A stretch of 64,000 bases of DNA from an uncultured Alphaproteobacteria bacterium (GCA_963739385.1 CAVUAI010000013.1:30512-94511), one strand, 5' to 3'. Shown: positions 39,685 through 50,087, counted from the stretch's first letter. Numbers and translations are program-made. Notes: generated by a model from the letters alone, not told the origin.

Positions 39685-40263
39685 ATGCTACGGAGTTCAT
39701 TCATGACGATTTTGAAATCTATGGGAATGACTGGCATTGCCGCGCTGCTGACGGCCGGACTCTCGTTGCCGGCGGCAGCGCAATCGGCCAAGGCCGCGCT
39801 CAAGGACAAGAGCGGCAAGGATGTCGGCGTCGTCGATCTGACGCAAACTCCAGGCGGCGTCTTGATCAAACTCTCGCTCAAGGGCATGCCGAACGGCGAG
39901 CACGCTTTCCACATCCACAATGTCGGCAAGTGTGAAGCGCCGTCGTTCGAGTCGGCAGGGCCGCATTTCAACCCCGACAACAAGCACCATGGCATTCTGT
40001 CGGGCGAAGGGCATGCCGGCGACATGCCGAACCTGCACATCCCGTCGGACGGGACGCTGGAAGTCGAGGTGGTCAATACCGCCGTCACGCTCGACAAGGG
40101 CAAGCCGAATTCCGTCTTCCATCCCGGCGGCACGTCGGTCGTGATCCACGTCGGCAAGGACGATTACAAGAGCGATCCGGCCGGCAATGCCGGCGACCGC
40201 GTTGCCTGTGGCGTGATCAGCGAGGCGACGCCGACGACAGTCGGCGGCGCGCCCGCGCGTTAG
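39685..40263 (+). CDS. sodC: Periplasmic Cu/Zn superoxide dismutase
   Basis: Signal peptide, then HAFHIHNVGKC, GPHFNP, GHAGDMPNL and AGNAGDRVACGVI, which are the Cu/Zn ligand and disulfide motifs. An alternative start is 39703. Confidence 0.9.
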   Translation: MLRSSFMTILKSMGMTGIAALLTAGLSLPAAAQSAKAALKDKSGKDVGVVDLTQTPGGVLIKLSLKGMPNGEHAFHIHNVGKCEAPSFESAGPHFNPDNKHHGILSGEGHAGDMPNLHIPSDGTLEVEVVNTAVTLDKGKPNSVFHPGGTSVVIHVGKDDYKSDPAGNAGDRVACGVISEATPTTVGGAPAR

Positions 40264-41715: not shown

Positions 41716-41901
41716 GGTTGGTCCTGACTGCTGGCCCCGACCGCACCGGTGTGCGTCCAACGGCCGTTTCCTGTCGTAACTCAATTGCGCCATCGGCGGC
41801 ACGGGAACGTGAAGCCACCGTTCGGCCGAAGTTTGCTATAGATCACCCGTCGCCACTTGCAAAAGTGCACTCGCAAAAGTTGGACTTGCAAAAGCCGCGC
41901 C

Positions 41902-42537
41902 ATGTCGATCGAAGCCACCCATGATCATGCCCTGACCTCAGCTACGCCGGGGCGGGCCGTCATTCATCCGGTATGGGTGCGGGTCACGCATTGGATCAAT
42001 GTCGTGGCCATGGTGGTGATGATCGGCTCGGGATGGGAGATCTACAACGCCTCCCCGCTGTTCCCGTTCAGGTTTCCGCGCAGCATTACGCTCGGCGGCT
42101 GGCTCGCGGGCGCCCTGCTCTGGCACTTTGCGGCGATGTGGCTCCTGGCGGTGAACGGCCTCGTCTATGTCGTGCTCGGGATCGTGACCGGGCGTTTCCG
42201 GCGCAAGCTCGTTCCGATCCGCCCCGGCGACGTCCTGGCCGATGCCAGGGCCGCACTCACCGGCAAGCTCGCCCATGACGATCTCGCCGTCTACAACGCC
42301 GTGCAGAAGCTGCTCTATCTCGGCGTGATCCTGGCCGGCATCGTCATCGTCCTGTCGGGCGTCGCGATCTGGAAGCCGGTGCAACTGCAGGAATTGACCG
42401 CGCTGTTCGGCGGATACGACGCCGCGCGCTACGTCCACTTCTTCGCCATGGCGGCAATCGTCGGCTTTCTCGTCGTGCACGTGATCATGGCGGTGCTGGT
42501 GCCGAAATCGCTGCGCGCCATGATCAGCGGGCGCTAG
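41902..42537 (+). CDS. Cytochrome b (b561/PhsC-like) membrane subunit
   Basis: MSIEATHD...HPVWVRVTHWINVVAMVVMIGSGW. It has four TM helices with conserved His residues and lies directly upstream of the Mo-oxidoreductase. Confidence 0.75.
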   Translation: MSIEATHDHALTSATPGRAVIHPVWVRVTHWINVVAMVVMIGSGWEIYNASPLFPFRFPRSITLGGWLAGALLWHFAAMWLLAVNGLVYVVLGIVTGRFRRKLVPIRPGDVLADARAALTGKLAHDDLAVYNAVQKLLYLGVILAGIVIVLSGVAIWKPVQLQELTALFGGYDAARYVHFFAMAAIVGFLVVHVIMAVLVPKSLRAMISGR

Positions 42538-42580
42538 GTTTGCGCGCGATCGCGTGAGCGCAGCTTCAGGAGAGATCGAG

Positions 42581-43357
42581 ATGTCTCGCATTCGCAGGAA
42601 TCCACCGGGGGTCGATTCCAGGCTCCTGATCAAGGATGCGGCGAAGCTGATGCCGGAACCGACCCGGCGCCTGTTCCTGCGCGGCGGCGCCAGTCTCGGC
42701 GCGCTCGCCTTCCTCGCGGGCTGCGACATCGTCGACGGTCCGTCGGCGGAGCACGCTTTGACCAAGATCTCGTATTTCAACGACGGCGTGCAGGCGTGGC
42801 TGTTCAACCCCAACCGGCTCGCGCCGACCTATCCGGAAAGCGCGGTGACGCGTCCCTTCCCTTTCAACGGCTATTACCCCGAGGACGAGGCGCCCGAGGT
42901 CGACAAGGACGACTACAAGTTCGAGGTCGGCGGCATGGTCGACGACAAGAAATCGTGGACGCTCGATGAGCTCTACGCGCTGCCGCAGGAAACCCAGATC
43001 ACCCGCCATATCTGCGTGGAGGGCTGGAGCGCGATCGGCAAGTGGACCGGCACGCCGCTGCGCGAATTCCTGCGCCGCGTCGGCGCCGATACGCGGGCGA
43101 AATACGTCTGGTTCCGCTGCGCCGAGGGCTATTCCACCTCGATCGACATGCCGACGGCGCTGCACCCGCAGACCCAGATGACCTTCCAGTTCGACGGCGC
43201 GATCCTGCCGCGCAAGTACGGCTTCCCGATGAAGGTGCGCATCCCGACCAAGCTCGGCTTCAAGAATCCCAAATACGTGATGGAGATGGCCGTGACCGAC
43301 AAGTATCTCGGGGGCTACTGGGAGGACCAGGGATACAACTGGTTCAGCGGGAGTTGA
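42581..43357 (+). CDS. Molybdopterin-dependent oxidoreductase (MsrP/YedY-like, sulfite-oxidase fold) with Tat leader
   Basis: ATG 42581 follows AGGAGAG. The Tat leader is TRRLFLRGGASLGALAFLAGC. CVEGWS, KYGFPMKVRIP and KLGFKNPKYV are typical of the oxidoreductase molybdopterin-binding domain. Confidence 0.8.
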   Translation: MSRIRRNPPGVDSRLLIKDAAKLMPEPTRRLFLRGGASLGALAFLAGCDIVDGPSAEHALTKISYFNDGVQAWLFNPNRLAPTYPESAVTRPFPFNGYYPEDEAPEVDKDDYKFEVGGMVDDKKSWTLDELYALPQETQITRHICVEGWSAIGKWTGTPLREFLRRVGADTRAKYVWFRCAEGYSTSIDMPTALHPQTQMTFQFDGAILPRKYGFPMKVRIPTKLGFKNPKYVMEMAVTDKYLGGYWEDQGYNWFSGS

Positions 43358-43750
43358 GTACTACAAACTTGCCAAGCAATATTCATGAATGTGGTTCAAA
43401 CACATCATGGATGACACTAGACAGGGATCAGATTATCAATAGCGACTATGGCAACAGGCTGGCAACGAGCGTGCGGAGACGCAAGGTAGAAACAGCACGA
43501 CGTTCGAGTCGAGCCTAGCGCAGTGCCGCCACTCTAGCGCCGCCTCTTGTCGGGAACCGCACCCCGTCCGCATGAAGGACAAGGCGTGACCAAACCGGCC
43601 TGCCACGCGCGCTCGAACTGCTCGCCGCCAAAAGATCGCAGCTCAGCATCGCGCGGAACATAGCGATCCGCTATCGCACGATTATGTCGGCAGTCGACTG
43701 CGGCCAGCCATCCGTGGGCGCCGTTGGCTCACAGCACAACAAATAGTCTG

Positions 43751-43779
43751 CTGACACGTAGCATTAAATGATGTATTCT
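43751..43779 (+). promoter_or_regulatory. Putative sigma70-type promoter for the islet operon
   Basis: CTGACA (43751-56), 17 nt, TATTCT (43774-79), about 29 nt upstream of ATG 43808 in an AT-rich stretch. This is a pattern match only. Confidence 0.3.
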
Positions 43780-43807
43780 ATCTAGGGTTGTTGAGAGTAT
43801 TCGGACT

Positions 43808-44365
43808 ATGCACAGACATTTCTGGCCCGTTGTCGCACTCGTCCTCATTTGTCCCATCCTTTGCCGCGGCGCCGAACCTTCGTTTTCGGAAGCCGTAGGG
43901 CTGTTAAGCCAGGAGCGAAGCTACGCCGAATCGGGCGCGGCATTGGTTAAGCAGTACGCGCCGGGCGACATAGAAGCCCGGCGGCTCTATGCGGACGCCA
44001 AGGGCGCCTTTGACGGCTTGATCGAGCAGCTGCTGGCGGACCTCGCGCAAAACAACGATCCGGAACTCTCCGCGGCATTTCGCGAGCGGATCGACGCCGC
44101 GGCGATGAAGCGCGTTGCGTTCAGTAAGCGCGCAGACGAGGTCCTGAAAGCCAATGTGCCAGAGGGGGCCAAGAACGCCATTCTGGTTGCGATTGCAGAA
44201 TCGTTAGCAAAAACTCCCGTCGAGATAGTGAAAGAGCTGTTCGGGGGCGGAATGACCATCTGGAAAGAATGGCGGGGTGTTAGCACCGAACGCCGCAAGC
44301 AGATAACCACGCGGATTGAGGCACAGCGATGGAAACCTTTTGCCGAGATCCCTCCCGCGCTTTGA
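43808..44365 (+). CDS. Exported all-helical protein of unknown function (185 aa), first gene of the islet operon
   Basis: The signal peptide is MHRHFWPVVALVLICPILCRGA|EP. The mature part is Ala/Glu/Lys/Arg-rich with heptad-like helices, has no Cys, and shows no motif I recognise. Its 3-prime end overlaps the next gene by 37 nt. Confidence 0.7.
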   Translation: MHRHFWPVVALVLICPILCRGAEPSFSEAVGLLSQERSYAESGAALVKQYAPGDIEARRLYADAKGAFDGLIEQLLADLAQNNDPELSAAFRERIDAAAMKRVAFSKRADEVLKANVPEGAKNAILVAIAESLAKTPVEIVKELFGGGMTIWKEWRGVSTERRKQITTRIEAQRWKPFAEIPPAL

Positions 44366-47277
44366 ACGCGACCAGGATTGTTGCCCTGCTAATCGGGCTG
44401 CTTTTGCCCGCAGAAGTCCTCCGCGCGCAGGAAGTCGACAAGGACGGCCTCTACAGCCAGCCGTTTTTGGTCCTTGACCCTGAGATGCACGCCGACGCTA
44501 TCACGGCCACGGCTGTGGACGCAGGAGGCCGCTATATCGTAACCGGCTCATACGATAAGACGGTGCGCGTCTGGTCGGGCAACGATGGACGTCTCTTGCG
44601 CACCATCCGGATGCCGAGCGGTCCGGAGTACGCAGGCCAAGTTAATACGGTCGCGTTATCGCCTGATGGCAATACGATTGCAGCTGCCGGCGGGAGCCCG
44701 CACATCTTTCTATTTGACCGCGCCACGGGACGTCAAGTCTTGCGCATGGGACTCCCAACAAACGACTCCATCATTAATAAGCTGGCATTATCGCACGATG
44801 GCCGCAGGATTGCCGCGGGTATCCAAAATCCATTTAGCCTCCGTCTGTTTGACCTGGATGGCCCGAATGAAATTGCCTTCGATGACGAATATAAGGAGTC
44901 AATATACGGGATCTCCTTCGACGCCGCCGGGCGCATTGCGACCGCATCTGAAGACCACAAACTTCGGCTTTATGACCGTCATCTTAAGCTAATACGCAGC
45001 GCCCGTGCGCCGGGTCGCCCTCCGCTGCAGCCGTTCCAAATTGCCTTCTCGCCCGACGGCAAACGCCTCGCTGTTGGATATGGTCCCGAAACGTCCACAC
45101 CGCGTGTGGATGTTGTGGACGGCCGTACCCTAGCCGCGATTTTTGTGCCGCCCATGAAAGGTTACAGCAGCGGGCGGTTAACTCGCATTGCGTGGTCCAA
45201 GGATGGCAGCATCCTCTATGCCGGCGGAACTACTACGTCGCGGGACGGTGTCAGCAAGCTAGTTTTCGCGTGGAAAAACGGTGGTCGCGGTCCCGCTCAG
45301 GTTTTTCCAGCGGGATCAGAAACCATTTCAGAGATTCGGGAACTCTCCGGAGGCCGCATCGTCGTTGCGTCTATGCGTCCTAGCCTGTCCATTTTTGATC
45401 GGGGAGGCACGGTCCTACGGCAAATCGACCCGACGACTGGGGACTTCCGACAACAAGCAAAGGCCTTGAAAGTCAGTCCAGACGGAAACACAGTCCTGTT
45501 TAATTTCGCGGGTGCAGACGACAAGTCAATAGCTGCTTTCGACATAAGCAGGCGAGCACTTGACATCGCTCCAAACCCGCGTTCGGGGCTCGTGGCTCCC
45601 CGCATTGAGGGACTTCCAATCACTGACTGGGAGAATAAAACAAACCCAAAACTTGGAGGGCGCCCTCTCACAGATGATAATTTTACCTCCCGCAGCTTGG
45701 CCATTGCGCGTGACGCTAGCAGTTTCTGGCTCGCGAGGGATTGGGATCTTCGCCACCTCGACGCCGACGGCAATTTGATCCGGCAAATCAATGCCGTAAC
45801 CATTCCGTGGGCCGTGAACCTCGCGGCCGACGATCGGTTGGTGATCGCAGCGCATGGTGACGGCACGATCCGCTGGTATCGGAGCGCAGATGGCGTGGAA
45901 ATCCTGACGTTTTATCCTCACGCAGACCGCAAGCGATGGGTTGCGTGGACACCCCTCGGCCATTACGCGGCCTCGCCAGGAGCCGAGGATTTTATCCAAT
46001 GGCAGGTTAACCGCGGCCTCGATCAGGAACCTATTACATATTCTGCGTCGCGATTTCGCGATCAGTTCTACCGGCCGGACGTGATCGAGCGCGTGCTCGA
46101 AACGCTCGATCCTAAGGCGGCGCTCGAGGCGGCTGACGCCGCCGCGGGTCGCACACGCAGTATTGTCAAGTCAATCACCGAATACACCCCACCTCGTGTC
46201 GCCATTGTCGATCCAGCGGACGCAACATTCGTCCAACGGCCGGAACTCGTTGTGGCATATACGATTGAGGACCGTCCAGGCACTGCGATTAGACGGATCA
46301 GATTAATGCTCGATGGAAGCGTAGTCGCGGAAGAAAAAAATCGGACGGTTGCCCAAGATGGCCGGATGGCGGGTGAGTTCAAGGTTTCGCTTCAAAGCGA
46401 TCAATCTTTAGTAACATTGATATTGCTCGCCGAGAATGAACATGGCACCAGCGATCCGTCCAGTGTACGCCTCCGCCGCAATGTTACCACTGATGACCAC
46501 AAACCGACGCTCTATGTACTTGCGGTTGGCGTCGGGGAGTTCAAAAACCATCCACACCTCAAGCTCAATTTTGCCCACGCTGACGCGAACGCCTTTGTGG
46601 AGCGCGTTGTGAGACAGGAACATGGGCTTTACAGTCGGGTTTTGGCACAAACCCTAGTGAACGAGCAGGCGACGGCAGAGGCAATTCTGAAGGGCCTCGA
46701 ATGGTTGGAGCGAAGTATGAGCTCCCGTGACGTGGCGGCTGTGTTCTTCTCTAGTCATGGGGCGAATGACACAAACCGACAGTTCTACCTGCTGCCACAT
46801 GACGTGAACGTTCTAGACGAGATTACCCTCCGCCGCAGCGCCCTCAAATATGTAGACCTACGTGACACTCTGGTACGCCTCGCAGAACGAGGCAAAACTT
46901 TGCTCTTCCTCGATGCGTGCTATTCCGGCAACGTTCTCCCCGGTGCAAAACAAGTAGCGCCACCGGACATAGATATGGTGGCGGCTGATCTGGCGAGCAC
47001 CGAGGGCGGCGTGGTCGTCTTCAGCTCTTCTACAGGTAAACAGTTTTCAATGGAGTATCCGGAACTTGGCCACGGGGCATTCACGGCGGCACTCCTGGAG
47101 GCTTTCGACGGCAAGTCCGACCGGCCCCCACCCTGGCTCCGTGTCAGTGACCTTGAAATCTGGCTCACAACGCGTGTCAAGGAATTGACGAAGGGCGCGC
47201 AGACACCGCGGACAACAGTCCCCGGCGAGCGCTTCATTAACCCGCGCGTTTTCATGATGCAGCACCAGACACGCTGA
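44329..47277 (+). CDS. Exported WD40/beta-propeller array, Ig-like module and C-terminal caspase-like (peptidase C14) protease, 982 aa
   Basis: ATG 44329 lies 8 nt after TGAGG. The leader is TRIVALLIGLLLPAEVLRA|QE. WD40-type blades include GGRYIVTGSYDKTVRVWS, ALSPDGNTIAAAG, SHDGRRIAAG, GRIATASEDHKLRLYD, FSPDGKRLAVG, VSPDGNTVLF and AAHGDGTIRWYR. The caspase p20-like core is TLYVLAVGVGEF...DVAAVFFSSHG (His810, 46756-58) ...TLLFLDACYSG (Cys864, 46918-20). Confidence 0.85.
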   Translation: METFCRDPSRALNATRIVALLIGLLLPAEVLRAQEVDKDGLYSQPFLVLDPEMHADAITATAVDAGGRYIVTGSYDKTVRVWSGNDGRLLRTIRMPSGPEYAGQVNTVALSPDGNTIAAAGGSPHIFLFDRATGRQVLRMGLPTNDSIINKLALSHDGRRIAAGIQNPFSLRLFDLDGPNEIAFDDEYKESIYGISFDAAGRIATASEDHKLRLYDRHLKLIRSARAPGRPPLQPFQIAFSPDGKRLAVGYGPETSTPRVDVVDGRTLAAIFVPPMKGYSSGRLTRIAWSKDGSILYAGGTTTSRDGVSKLVFAWKNGGRGPAQVFPAGSETISEIRELSGGRIVVASMRPSLSIFDRGGTVLRQIDPTTGDFRQQAKALKVSPDGNTVLFNFAGADDKSIAAFDISRRALDIAPNPRSGLVAPRIEGLPITDWENKTNPKLGGRPLTDDNFTSRSLAIARDASSFWLARDWDLRHLDADGNLIRQINAVTIPWAVNLAADDRLVIAAHGDGTIRWYRSADGVEILTFYPHADRKRWVAWTPLGHYAASPGAEDFIQWQVNRGLDQEPITYSASRFRDQFYRPDVIERVLETLDPKAALEAADAAAGRTRSIVKSITEYTPPRVAIVDPADATFVQRPELVVAYTIEDRPGTAIRRIRLMLDGSVVAEEKNRTVAQDGRMAGEFKVSLQSDQSLVTLILLAENEHGTSDPSSVRLRRNVTTDDHKPTLYVLAVGVGEFKNHPHLKLNFAHADANAFVERVVRQEHGLYSRVLAQTLVNEQATAEAILKGLEWLERSMSSRDVAAVFFSSHGANDTNRQFYLLPHDVNVLDEITLRRSALKYVDLRDTLVRLAERGKTLLFLDACYSGNVLPGAKQVAPPDIDMVAADLASTEGGVVVFSSSTGKQFSMEYPELGHGAFTAALLEAFDGKSDRPPPWLRVSDLEIWLTTRVKELTKGAQTPRTTVPGERFINPRVFMMQHQTR

Positions 47278-47409
47278 GGAGACCATGAAGCCAAAGTGCC
47301 TCGCACTGGGCCGCTTGCAAGCTGGCAGCGGGGTCGCCTGCCGCGCACCGATGTGCCGCCACCGATCCTGACTGTCTGGCAATAAAGCCGCGCTCGCTCT
47401 TGGACCGTA

Positions 47410-48768
47410 CTAGGTCGGCTTTGCGGGGATGCCGTCGTCGCTCATCCGTTGTTCCACTCTTTCTGTTAGATGTGCATGGGAGCGGGAGTTGAGGGGAGGA
47501 TAAGAATTTTCCGCCGCCGGCGATGGGACTTCGGTAATAAGCCGCGCGCCGCGATGGAACGTGATGTAGTCCCACAGCCAGGTGAACGCCACGATGAAGC
47601 GGTTCTTGAGCCCGATCAGGAAATAGATGTGGGCCACGCTCCAGAACAGCCATCCCACGAAACCCTTGAGCTGCAGGCGGCCGAACTTCACCACGGCGGC
47701 GCGCCGTCCGATGGTCGCGAGATCTCCGAGATGGCGATAGCGAAACGGCGGCAACGATCGCTTTGAGACGCGTGCGGCAATGAGCCGCCCGACATAGTGG
47801 CCCATCTGCTTGGCGGCCGGCGCGACCCCGGGAACCGGCTGCCCCTTCGGATCGCGGACGGCAGCAACGTCGCCGATCACGAACACGTCGGGATGGCCCG
47901 GAACCGACAGGTCCGGACCCACGATCACGCGCCCGGCGCGATCGGGCTCCACCCCGAGCCAGCGCGCGACCGGCGAGGCGACGACGCCCGCGGCCCAGAT
48001 GACGGTGCTGGCGTCGATGCGGCCGGGATCGAGATCGACGCCGCGCGCGTCCACGCTCGTGACACGGGTGGAGGTCCGCACGTCGACGCCCATGCGCGTG
48101 AGCGCGCGCCGGGCATAGTCGGACAGATCGTCAGGCAGCGTGGGCAATATGCGCGGACCTGCTTCGAGCAGGATGATGCGCGAACTGCGGGGGTCGATGC
48201 GCCGGAAGTCCTTGGCGAGCGTCTGGCGCGCGATCTCGGCGATGGCTCCGGCCATTTCCACGCCGGTGGCGCCGCCACCCACGATAACGAAGGTGAGCAG
48301 GCGCTCACGCTCGGCCTGGTCGCGGGCAAGCTCGGCATGCTCGAACGCCAGCAGGATGCTGCGGCGGATGCGGGTGCCGTCCTCGATGCGCTTAAGTCCG
48401 GGTGCGAACTCAGCCCAGGCGTCATGTCCGAAATAGGAGTGCGTCGCTCCGGTGGCGATCACGAGATAATCGTAGGAGATCGGACCGGCACCGGTCAGAA
48501 CGCGCCGGCCCTCGGCGTCGACGCCGACGACCTCCGCCATCAGGACCGTGGCGTTCGACTGCCCGCGCAGGATGTGCCGGATCGGCCAGGCGATCTCGGC
48601 CGGCGAGAGCGCGGCGGTCGCGACCTGGTAGAGCAGCGGCTGAAAGCAATGATGGTTCTGGCGATCGATCACGGTGACGTCGACGGCGGCGCGGGCCAGC
48701 GCCCTCGTGGCTTCAAGCCCGCCGAAGCCGGCACCGACGATCACGACGTTGGGACGCTTCTGTGACAT
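47410..48768 (-). CDS. ndh: Type II NADH dehydrogenase (NDH-2)
   Basis: Starts at [19 protein letters not shown] (ATG 48766-68). It has a second dinucleotide motif ([15 protein letters not shown]) and the motif GDVA. 452 aa. Confidence 0.9.
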
Positions 48769-48974
48769 GCGCGTTCCTTTCGGGCCGACTTTACCCCGCG
48801 ATGAGCGATGCGACACCTGCGCTTGTGCCAAATCCGAGCCTGCAAGTTCCGCCGCTCGCGCGTTGCGGTCCGGTGGCGACGGCGGCGGAGCACCCGATCC
48901 GGCGGTCTCCTTGCCAAGCCCGGCGCGGGCCTTTAGCAATCCGCACGGAAACGCATCGAGCGAGGCACCGTGCA

Positions 48975-50087
48975 ATGGCGACCCACAAGCTCCTCCTTCT
49001 CGCCGGCGACGGCATCGGTCCCGAGGTGATGGCCGAAGTCAAAAAGCTCATCGCCTGGATGAATGCGCATGGGCTCGGCACCTTCGAGACCGAAGACGCG
49101 CTGGTCGGCGGCTCCTGCTACGACGCCCACAAGGTCGCGATCACCGACGAGACCATGGCCAAGGCGCATGCGGCCGACGCCGTCATCTTCGGCGCGGTCG
49201 GCGGACCGAAGTGGGATGCCGTGCCCTATGACGTGCGGCCGGAGGCGGGGCTGCTGCGCCTGCGCAAGGATCTCGGCCTGTTCGCCAACATCCGCCCCGC
49301 CATCTGCTATCCCGCGCTGGCGGAATCCTCGAGCCTCAAGCGCGAGGTGGTGGACGGGCTCGACATCATCATCCTGCGGGAACTGACCGGCGGGGTCTAT
49401 TTCGGCGAGCCGAAAACCATCACCGATCTCGGCAACGGGCAGAAGCGGGCGGTCGATACCCAGGTCTACGACACCTACGAGATCGAGCGCATCGCCCGCG
49501 TCGGCTTCGAGCTCGCGCGCAAGCGCCGCAAGAAGGTCACCTCGATGGAGAAGCGCAACGTCATGAAAACCGGCGTGCTCTGGCACGAGGTGGTGAACCA
49601 GGTGCACGCCCGCGAGTTCAAGGACGTGACGCTCGAGCACCAGCTCGCCGACGCCGGCGGCATGCAGCTCGTGCGCTGGCCCAAGCAGTTCGACGTGATC
49701 GTTACCGACAACCTGTTCGGCGACATGCTGTCCGACATCGCGGCCATGCTCACGGGGTCCCTCGGCATGCTGCCCTCGGCGTCGCTCGGCGAGGTCGATC
49801 CCAAAACCAAGAAGCGCAAGGCCATGTACGAACCGGTGCATGGCTCCGCGCCCGACATCGCCGGCAAGGGGGTGGCCAATCCGATCGCGATGATCGCGTC
49901 GTTCGCCATGGCGCTGCGCTACTCGCTGAATATGAGCAAGGAGGCCGACCGGATCGAGCAGGCGATCGCCGCCACGCTCGCCAAGGGGCTGCGCACGGCC
50001 GACATCAAGTCCGACGGCGCCAAGATCGTGACGACGACCCAGATGGGCGACGCCATCATTGGCGAGATGGAGACGCTCGCGGCATGA
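48975..50087 (+). CDS. leuB: 3-isopropylmalate dehydrogenase
   Basis: [19 protein letters not shown] (ATG 48975), [19 protein letters not shown] and [15 protein letters not shown]. 370 aa. Confidence 0.95.

Follow-up and report, generated by a model that had tools for sequence, protein, structure and literature searches.

A two-gene cassette occupies positions 43808-47277 of a 64,000-nucleotide (nt) stretch of DNA from an uncultured Alphaproteobacteria bacterium (GCA_963739385.1 CAVUAI010000013.1:30512-94511; hereafter the window, with positions counted from its first letter). The second gene encodes a 982-amino-acid (aa) protein in which a leader, WD40 propellers and an immunoglobulin (Ig)-like module precede a C-terminal caspase-like domain, and the first gene encodes a predicted exported partner. 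We judge it probable, if well short of certain, that the cassette is an acquired operon for a periplasmic, Arg/Lys-specific metacaspase-like protease, whose propellers bind the co-encoded partner and which most likely cleaves it. The exported partner family is the main new point of our analysis, and the partner gene provides the most informative clue to function.

The partner gene

The gene directly upstream of the protease gene had been missed in a preliminary description of this DNA. Its features are:

43808-44365, plus strand: partner gene, encoding a predicted exported protein of 185 aa from an unannotated family
43808-43873, plus strand: signal-like leader of the partner, MHRHFWPVVALVLICPILCRGA, a hydrophobic N-terminus in the sequence
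44318-44321, plus strand: GAGG Shine-Dalgarno-like motif, read from the sequence, within the partner coding region and 7 nt before the ATG of the caspase gene

The stop codon of the partner lies inside the caspase gene, such that the two coding regions overlap by 37 nt. This 37-nt overlap is kept in two related loci (L001 and L002) and measures 4 nt in a Nitrosomonas locus (L003), and we propose that translation of the partner and the protease may be coupled. The 185-aa protein had no match in Pfam, NCBIfam, PADLOC or the PDB sequences, and its profile returned only chance-level matches (E ≥ 0.3) when compared with PDB sequences. It has 73 close relatives, and a profile search of 1.84 billion representative proteins recovered 737 clusters at E ≤ 1e-3; at the stricter level of E ≤ 1e-10, 370 remained. 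With few exceptions, the 150 best-ranked of these 737 clusters are proteins of 170-210 aa that stand alone. Twin-arginine-type leaders of the form RRxFL open many of the aligned sequences (MTVTGRRTFLL and MLRRTFLL are two examples from more distant members), and Gly120 and Lys122 of a PEGAK motif, located beside a stretch of variable length, are nearly invariant.

The partner gene is found directly upstream of a WD40-C14 gene in seven of seven places (the window, L001, L002, L003, L087, L089 and L090), a sample that represents a small share of the 737 clusters. The pairing extends to Nitrosomonas (L003), where a partner with 32% identity directly precedes a WD40-Peptidase_C14 gene. In L002, whose WD40-caspase is 71% identical to the window protein, the upstream gene (1012-2547 of that locus) encodes a 511-aa protein that combines a leader, a complete second Peptidase_C14 domain and, in its C-terminal third, the partner domain; this fusion gene lies directly upstream of the WD40-caspase gene, placing two exported caspase domains back to back. 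Strict pairing, the proposed coupling of translation and export signals on both proteins together speak for joint action of the partner and the protease in the periplasm.

Domain architecture of the protease

The open reading frame (ORF) of the protease is divided as follows:

44329-47277, plus strand: WD40-Ig-caspase gene with ATG start, 982 aa, stop codon included in the coordinates
44329-44427, plus strand: Sec-type signal peptide or signal anchor, residues 1-33 (model helix 8-29; leaders across relatives)
44461-46044, plus strand: tandem WD40 beta-propellers, residues 45-572 (Pfam, PDB sequence match, Foldseek)
46045-46146, plus strand: three-helix linker, residues 573-606 (DSSP on the model)
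46189-46479, plus strand: Ig-like beta-sandwich of seven strands, residues 621-717 (model strands, weak Big_7 match)
46501-47262, plus strand: caspase/metacaspase-like C14 peptidase domain, residues 725-978 (PF00656, PDB profile search, Foldseek)

A full-length AlphaFold2 model, computed with an alignment of 70 relatives that are 36-77% identical to the query, reached a mean predicted local distance difference test (pLDDT) score of 90.1 and a predicted template modelling (pTM) score of 0.89. It comprises a helix at residues 8-29, a continuous run of four-stranded blades at 46-572, linker helices at 573-580, 583-592 and 595-606, and an alpha/beta domain at 727-976. Together with Pfam and Foldseek, the model bears out the four-segment anatomy put forward in the preliminary description, with boundaries that agree to within a few residues.

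The WD40 part scored 87.2 bits against PF00400 (Pfam cut-off 27), with many propeller models matching across residues ~52-400, and its PDB sequence match was 2ymu (E = 2.6e-48). Foldseek comparison of the whole model retrieved WD40 proteins only, including the tandem seven-bladed propellers 2ymu, Aip1 (1nr0) and Utp21 (4nsx). Both the strand count of the model and these double-propeller matches fit a total of about 13-14 blades; the preliminary description had given roughly a dozen, enough for two propellers. Within the linker, R582 is invariant and P583 and D584 are nearly invariant across the WD40-caspase family. The following segment contains strands at 623-628, 639-647, 653-661, 664-673, 679-687, 694-703 and 711-716, and begins with P621 and P622, which are invariant in the family; we call it Ig-like on account of this strand topology in the model and a weak Big_7 match (E = 0.064). 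Some relatives of the protein carry PF17957.

For the C-terminal domain, Peptidase_C14 (PF00656) matched residues 730-961 with 55.5 bits (gathering cut-off 21.4; E = 8e-15) when the whole protein was searched, and with 59.9 bits (E = 3.9e-16) when the isolated C-terminal segment was used. The fold was assessed on a second AlphaFold2 model covering residues 612-982 (pLDDT 85.9). Its best Foldseek match was GSU0716 (3bij; E = 1e-11, template modelling score 0.67-0.69), and MALT1, Yca1, a Candida metacaspase, AtMC9 and caspase-8/-3 were also matched, all with probability 1.00. A PDB profile search with the caspase domain gave the same ranking, with 3bij at E = 3e-8 alongside Yca1, AtMC4 and TbMCA2. 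At the level of the predicted structure, these comparisons confirm a caspase-haemoglobinase alpha/beta fold of peptidase family C14, clan CD, and with it the caspase domain of the preliminary description.

We also considered an apoptosome-type STAND protein. No NB-ARC, NACHT or AAA domain was present among the best 25 of 38 Pfam families matched at E ≤ 1, and the model contained no STAND NTPase domain, so this candidate was ruled out on the Pfam matches listed and the model.

Catalytic site and predicted specificity

The residues on which catalysis and specificity are expected to depend are encoded as follows:

46582-46584, plus strand: codon of Asp752, which supplies the first acid of the predicted S1 pocket and does not vary across the 70 sequences
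46756-46758, plus strand: CAT codon of His810, the catalytic His of the SSHG motif, H and G invariant
46912-46920, plus strand: Asp862-Ala-Cys864 (D-x-C), containing the catalytic Cys (TGC, 46918-46920) and the second acidic pocket residue, D and C invariant
46948-46950, plus strand: codon of Lys874, candidate autoprocessing site in the flexible post-Cys loop, with a basic residue in 70 of 70 sequences

Asp752, Ala753, His810, Gly811, Asp862 and Cys864 are invariant in the 70-sequence alignment, and the His-Cys dyad stands at the two codons at which it had been placed earlier. In the PDB profile search, SSHG aligned with SGHG, and LDACYSG with the DSCHSG of metacaspases. On this basis, the 982-aa protein is very probably a catalytically competent, metacaspase-like C14 cysteine endopeptidase. 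In the alignment with Yca1 and AtMC4, Asp752 falls on the Asp of their C-x-x-D motif, and Asp862 is the D of D-x-C; in metacaspase structures, these two positions form an acidic S1 pocket that selects Arg or Lys. Cleavage after basic residues is to be expected of an enzyme of the metacaspase-like type, and the P1 preference of the protease is therefore probably Arg or Lys. Two conserved pocket Asp residues have likewise been reported for orthocaspases (PMC6426788).

The loop that follows the catalytic Cys offers a candidate site for autoprocessing. Nine to ten residues past Cys864, Lys or Arg is present in all 70 sequences (52 in column 873 and 61 in column 874), and the loop has the lowest pLDDT within the caspase domain (~59-62 in the residues 612-982 model). 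Lys874 may thus be cleaved by the protease itself, since the loop is always basic and is the least confident part of the domain model. Past Cys864, both models continue with more strands and helices up to residue 976, and an SSTGxQxSxE motif aligns with the p10-side motif of Yca1. Because the fold continues in this way and the motif aligns, the modelled domain looks closer to a full metacaspase-like domain than to a p20-only orthocaspase.

Leader and export

We assessed export of the 982-aa protein from the composition of its leader, the model and conservation in the family. The leader has an n-region with Arg6, Arg10 and Arg16, a 12-residue h-region (IVALLIGLLLPA) and a c-region reading EVLRA|QE. 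Among the relatives, 95 have 15 or more residues ahead of the first conserved motif, and 90 of these leaders show a hydrophobic core; a METF... start is conserved among close relatives. Several relatives (for example P0037, P0066, P0071 and P0076) show a lipobox-like L-x-x-C followed by a Pro-rich linker, and fusions in the family include PDZ domains (P0061) and the peptidoglycan-binding domain PF01471 (P0062). A few database relatives lack a leader; these look like truncated gene calls because they start at or inside the first conserved motif. All of the 80 genomes listed as hosts of the WD40-caspase belong to diderm phyla. Export, as suggested in the preliminary description, therefore appears likely from the leader composition, the model helix and the leaders of the family, and we infer a periplasmic location, in which the protein would be either soluble or N-terminally anchored.

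Distribution of the family

The protein search returned thousands of relatives. The best 120 are almost all 945-990 aa in length, and mapping of three query segments showed that nearly all of them share the order leader, WD40, middle domain and caspase. At least 526 encoding loci are present in species-representative genomes (one genome per species). The phyla and classes among the 80 listed are Nitrospirota, Alpha-, Beta- and Gammaproteobacteria, Desulfobacterota, Acidobacteriota, Spirochaetota, Bacteroidota, Chlorobiota and Omnitrophota, and named sources include Thiosymbion, Halobeggiatoa, Desulfobacter curvatus, Nitrosomonas, Syntrophorhabdus and Bryobacteraceae. Cultured carriers are available in Azospirillum agricola CC-HIH038, Geobacter sp. 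OR-1, Solidesulfovibrio aerotolerans DSM 16695 and Desulfobacter curvatus.

The architecture is also on record. NCBI names family members "caspase family protein", and the supplementary domain table of Asplund-Samuelsson et al. (2012) contains an entry "WD40[10-45]|Bac_PepC14[681-934]" with a positive Cys-His check; the same authors considered the N-terminal helices of many bacterial metacaspases to be probable signal peptides and suggested that some of these proteins may act extracellularly. The literature that we found consists of catalogues and reviews; none of it studies this architecture or the partner, and we found no published function. Given the at least 526 loci, the NCBI naming and the 2012 entry, the architecture is neither rare nor uncatalogued, and the view that it would be unusual is not upheld. 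The domain order cited in support of that view (protease N-terminal, protein cytoplasmic) is correct for cyanobacterial orthocaspases and does not hold for bacteria in general. As to whether this is an already described family with a known role, the description exists and no role has been published. The window protein is an ordinary family member and not a singular architecture, and is typical of a large, widespread, annotated and unstudied prokaryotic C14 family.

Recurring neighbours in the wider family

We clustered the neighbouring ORFs of 86 WD40-caspase loci. No universal neighbour of the WD40-caspase gene emerged across these loci, and the idea of one fixed operon for all WD40-caspases was dropped. 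DUF4384 proteins adjoin the caspase gene in ~17 of the 86 loci, and the domain is present in 8 of 32 immediately upstream genes; some of these proteins have leaders (L004) and some are fused to further C14 domains (L051). In three Saprospiraceae loci, the upstream protein carries EAD11 at its N-terminus (L073 3046-3999, L081 3004-4017 and L083 2400-3404), and in L073 this is followed by one transmembrane helix, a Thr/Pro-rich linker and a C-terminal DUF4384-like domain. As read from its sequence, the Saprospiraceae protein links the predicted exported caspase to a cytoplasmic conflict-system adaptor. A CHASE2 adenylate/guanylate cyclase gene lies directly downstream in L004 and L005, with homologues in five further loci, FecR-domain genes occur near some WD40-caspase genes, and OmpA-domain neighbours were found in two loci. 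The DUF4384, EAD11, CHASE2, FecR and OmpA-domain neighbours suggest that the family may often cooperate with signal transducers that span the envelope and, in certain lineages, also with adaptors of conflict systems. No gene of these five types is present in the 64-kb window.

Two further arrangements were observed among these loci. L004 and L005 share a compact same-strand cluster (450-10994 in L004) of FecR, HicA/HicB, a 977-aa tetratricopeptide repeat protein, an exported DUF4384 protein, the WD40-caspase, the CHASE2-cyclase and DUF4140/DUF4139, in which several gene junctions overlap. Azospirillum agricola carries, on contig NZ_JAGINM010000010.1, two WD40-caspase copies ~15 kb apart (L050, 104512-115238; L059, 89100-99886); a double-DUF4384 protein is encoded ahead of each, and more caspase-domain ORFs are close by.

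Genomic setting

The cassette stands out from its surroundings in guanine-cytosine (GC) content:

43358-47409, no strand: low-GC stretch comprising the two-gene cassette and a 450-nt upstream spacer, GC 0.53-0.60 against 0.64-0.71 in both flanks

In L001 and L002, which carry 71-77% identical relatives, the gene pair has flanking genes quite different from those of the window. The low GC and the different neighbours fit the reading of 43808-47277 as a horizontally acquired two-gene operon. At the borders of the low-GC stretch, a search revealed no repeats, either direct or inverted. The neighbouring genes and the GC content point to a Bradyrhizobium-like alphaproteobacterial chromosome as the source. 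The flanks contain metabolic and envelope genes, namely sdh genes, a LysR regulator, SodC, a MaoC-type hydratase, cytochrome b561, a molybdopterin oxidoreductase, NDH-2, leuB, a Bug-family binding protein, a sulfite-oxidase-like protein and asd.

The spacer (43358-43807) separates the molybdopterin oxidoreductase and partner genes, contains no ORF of 80 aa or longer within its 450 nt, and has a GC of ~0.555, the lowest among the non-coding DNA of the neighbourhood. Upstream of it, a cytochrome b561-type membrane protein (41857-42537) is followed by the molybdopterin oxidoreductase (42554-43357), which has a weak Tat-signal match; the pair looks like an MsrQ/MsrP-type periplasmic repair pair and, with SodC (39685-40263), places envelope and oxidative-stress genes just upstream of the cassette. 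On the other side, an NDH-2 ORF on the minus strand (47410-48975) converges on the 3' end of the caspase gene across a gap of ~130 nt. Its listed start is a TTG ~70 codons ahead of the Rossmann motif, which begins at about residue 75, and the long N-terminal extension is probably not translated.

Comparison with known systems

GSU0716 of Geobacter sulfurreducens (PDB 3BIJ), a C14 domain from structural genomics, is the best match in both structure and sequence and likewise has SGHG and DSCHSG motifs. Unlike the 982-aa protein, it is a single domain of ~285 aa without propellers, Ig module or leader; its function is also unassigned. The type I metacaspases (Yca1 4F6O, Trypanosoma MCA2 4AF8, and plant AtMC4 and AtMC9) have in common with the window protein the fold, the dyad, the C-x-x-D/D-x-C positions and a p10-like SxxxQxS, but are eukaryotic and cytoplasmic, have N-terminal prodomains instead of propellers, and are 13-17% identical to it. 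The paracaspase MALT1 (caspase plus Ig3), which is Arg-specific, strongly resembles the caspase domain in structure (E ~1e-10) and also has an Ig-like domain adjoining the protease; however, its Ig follows the protease, it has extra death and Ig domains, and it is a cytoplasmic metazoan protein.

A functional analogy is offered by propeller-gated peptidases (prolyl oligopeptidase/DPP-IV, tricorn) and PDZ proteases (DegS, DegP, Prc), in which a non-catalytic module selects the ligand or gates access. The PDZ proteases are periplasmic, and some cleave transmembrane regulators. The catalytic folds of these serine peptidases are unrelated to that of the 982-aa protein, and homology is not implied.

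The cyanobacterial WD40 orthocaspases (TeMC9, and the biochemically studied MaOC1) are likewise prokaryotic C14 proteins with a His-Cys dyad and an acidic S1 pocket, and WD40 repeats are the most frequent accessory domain of such orthocaspases (PMC3501461, PMC5756287). According to reviews, the protease is N-terminal and the WD40 part C-terminal in these orthocaspases, which lie either in the cytoplasm or with the protease inside and the WD40 part outside. The window protein differs in its reversed order, in the leader that precedes the whole protein, in its Ig module and in its dedicated exported partner. EACC1-caspase systems (Kaur et al. 2020, PMC7159879) also comprise two genes, a small upstream membrane or envelope component and a downstream caspase with variable extra domains. 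In these systems, the caspase is N-terminal and the 5' gene carries a single-transmembrane EACC1 domain (PMC7159879). The NCBIfam model of EACC1-type caspases, NF047832, was the best named match to our protein, with 73.6 bits against a cut-off of 140. We rejected membership because the score is below the cut-off, the caspase is C-terminal and the upstream 185-aa protein has no Pfam match. Against PADLOC, the partner had no match and the protease no more than a weak, generic caspase one (E = 2.8e-6); the cassette is not a catalogued defence system.

Proposed mechanism and alternatives

In the mechanism that we favour, the 982-aa protease would be exported by the Sec route and sit in the periplasm, soluble or anchored by its N-terminus, where its two WD40 propellers and Ig-like module would serve as a target-binding platform. 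The cognate ligand would be the small exported protein from the upstream gene, which translational coupling would produce in step with the protease. The protease would bind this partner and most likely cleave it, the candidate cleavage sites being the nearly invariant, presumably exposed Lys of the partner and the basic loop of the protease itself, and the cut would activate or shut down a process in the periplasm or envelope. We infer both the part of the partner as ligand or substrate and the physiological role of the cassette. Several points weigh against this mechanism. The Leu at -3 makes for a weaker signal-peptidase site, and the leader may therefore stay uncleaved as an anchor. The partner could equally be an inhibitor or an adaptor. 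In about two-thirds of the 86 loci, no conserved neighbour is recognisable, and the protease can therefore evidently work without a dedicated partner. The EAD11 link, seen in one lineage, and the sub-threshold EACC1-type match point toward conflict systems and not toward housekeeping proteolysis. Finally, promoter and terminator scans gave chance-level results, including a sigma-70-like site at 43751-43779 upstream of the partner gene.

If the partner is an inhibitor, the cassette could be an immunity-type pair, in which the exported caspase is a weapon or lytic factor directed at the envelope or at other cells, with the partner as a stoichiometric periplasmic inhibitor that protects the producer. 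Such a role would suit a small, exported protein that is encoded first, translationally coupled to the protease and strictly co-inherited with it; the low GC and varying contexts of the cassette resemble those of mobile conflict loci, in L002 the partner domain follows a caspase domain within one protein, as an intramolecular inhibitory module would, and one lineage ties the protease to EAD11. Yet PADLOC saw nothing beyond its generic caspase match, the window has no secretion-system genes near the cassette, and many WD40-caspase family members are without any partner, and we regard this explanation as unlikely, albeit one to be taken seriously. We consider it improbable that the cassette is the periplasmic arm of a transmembrane signalling or surveillance pathway, in which the propellers would sense an envelope-derived ligand, the caspase would cleave the periplasmic domain of a transducer and the helical partner would act here as an adaptor. 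The CHASE2-cyclase genes directly downstream in L004 and L005 and near the caspase gene in five more loci, the nearby FecR-domain genes, the OmpA-domain neighbours of two loci, and the N-terminal EAD11 of the upstream proteins in L073, L081 and L083 (in L073 together with a transmembrane helix and a DUF4384-like domain) would all be in keeping with it, but each association concerns a minority of loci, and in the window the cassette consists of two genes flanked by unrelated metabolic genes, with no such transducers.

The two remaining alternatives concern the protease itself. It could be a cytoplasmic protein that behaves as a classical WD40 orthocaspase, its hydrophobic N-terminus being an annotation artefact or a membrane-association helix, as reviews describe WD40 proteins and characterised caspase homologues as mostly cytoplasmic and a few database relatives have no leader. 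The leaderless relatives, however, look like truncated gene calls, the hydrophobic leader recurs in 90 of the 95 judgeable relatives with the METF... start conserved in close ones, the partner family has Sec- or Tat-type (twin-arginine translocation) leaders, and PDZ and peptidoglycan-binding fusions occur, all of which make a cytoplasmic location very improbable. We give least credence of all to a non-catalytic caspase domain that functions as a binding module only. Pseudo-orthocaspases are common in bacteria (PMC6426788), but the known pseudo-variants replace the His and Cys (for example by Tyr and Ser), whereas H, G, D-x-C and the pocket Asp are invariant here in 70 sequences.

Significance

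To our knowledge, every caspase homologue studied so far acts inside cells. The family to which the window protein belongs is a large and phylogenetically broad group of apparently active, exported caspase-like proteases whose role is unassigned. The strictly linked exported partner makes the substrate, inhibitor and adaptor hypotheses directly testable, and the partner, together with the DUF4384, EAD11 and CHASE2 associations, narrows function to a small set of testable mechanisms.

More speculatively, the cassette may belong to an undescribed class of periplasmic caspase-based switches, in which propellers capture a partner (the 185-aa helical family here, DUF4384 proteins elsewhere) and the metacaspase-like domain cleaves it in signalling or defence; we hold this broader proposal to be doubtful but worth stating. 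A signal of envelope damage or of an invader could then be carried into the cell by cleavage, since in some lineages the partner spans the membrane with EAD11 or a CHASE2 cyclase is encoded alongside. If true, this class of switches would give bacteria an envelope-side counterpart of apoptosome or death-domain signalling.

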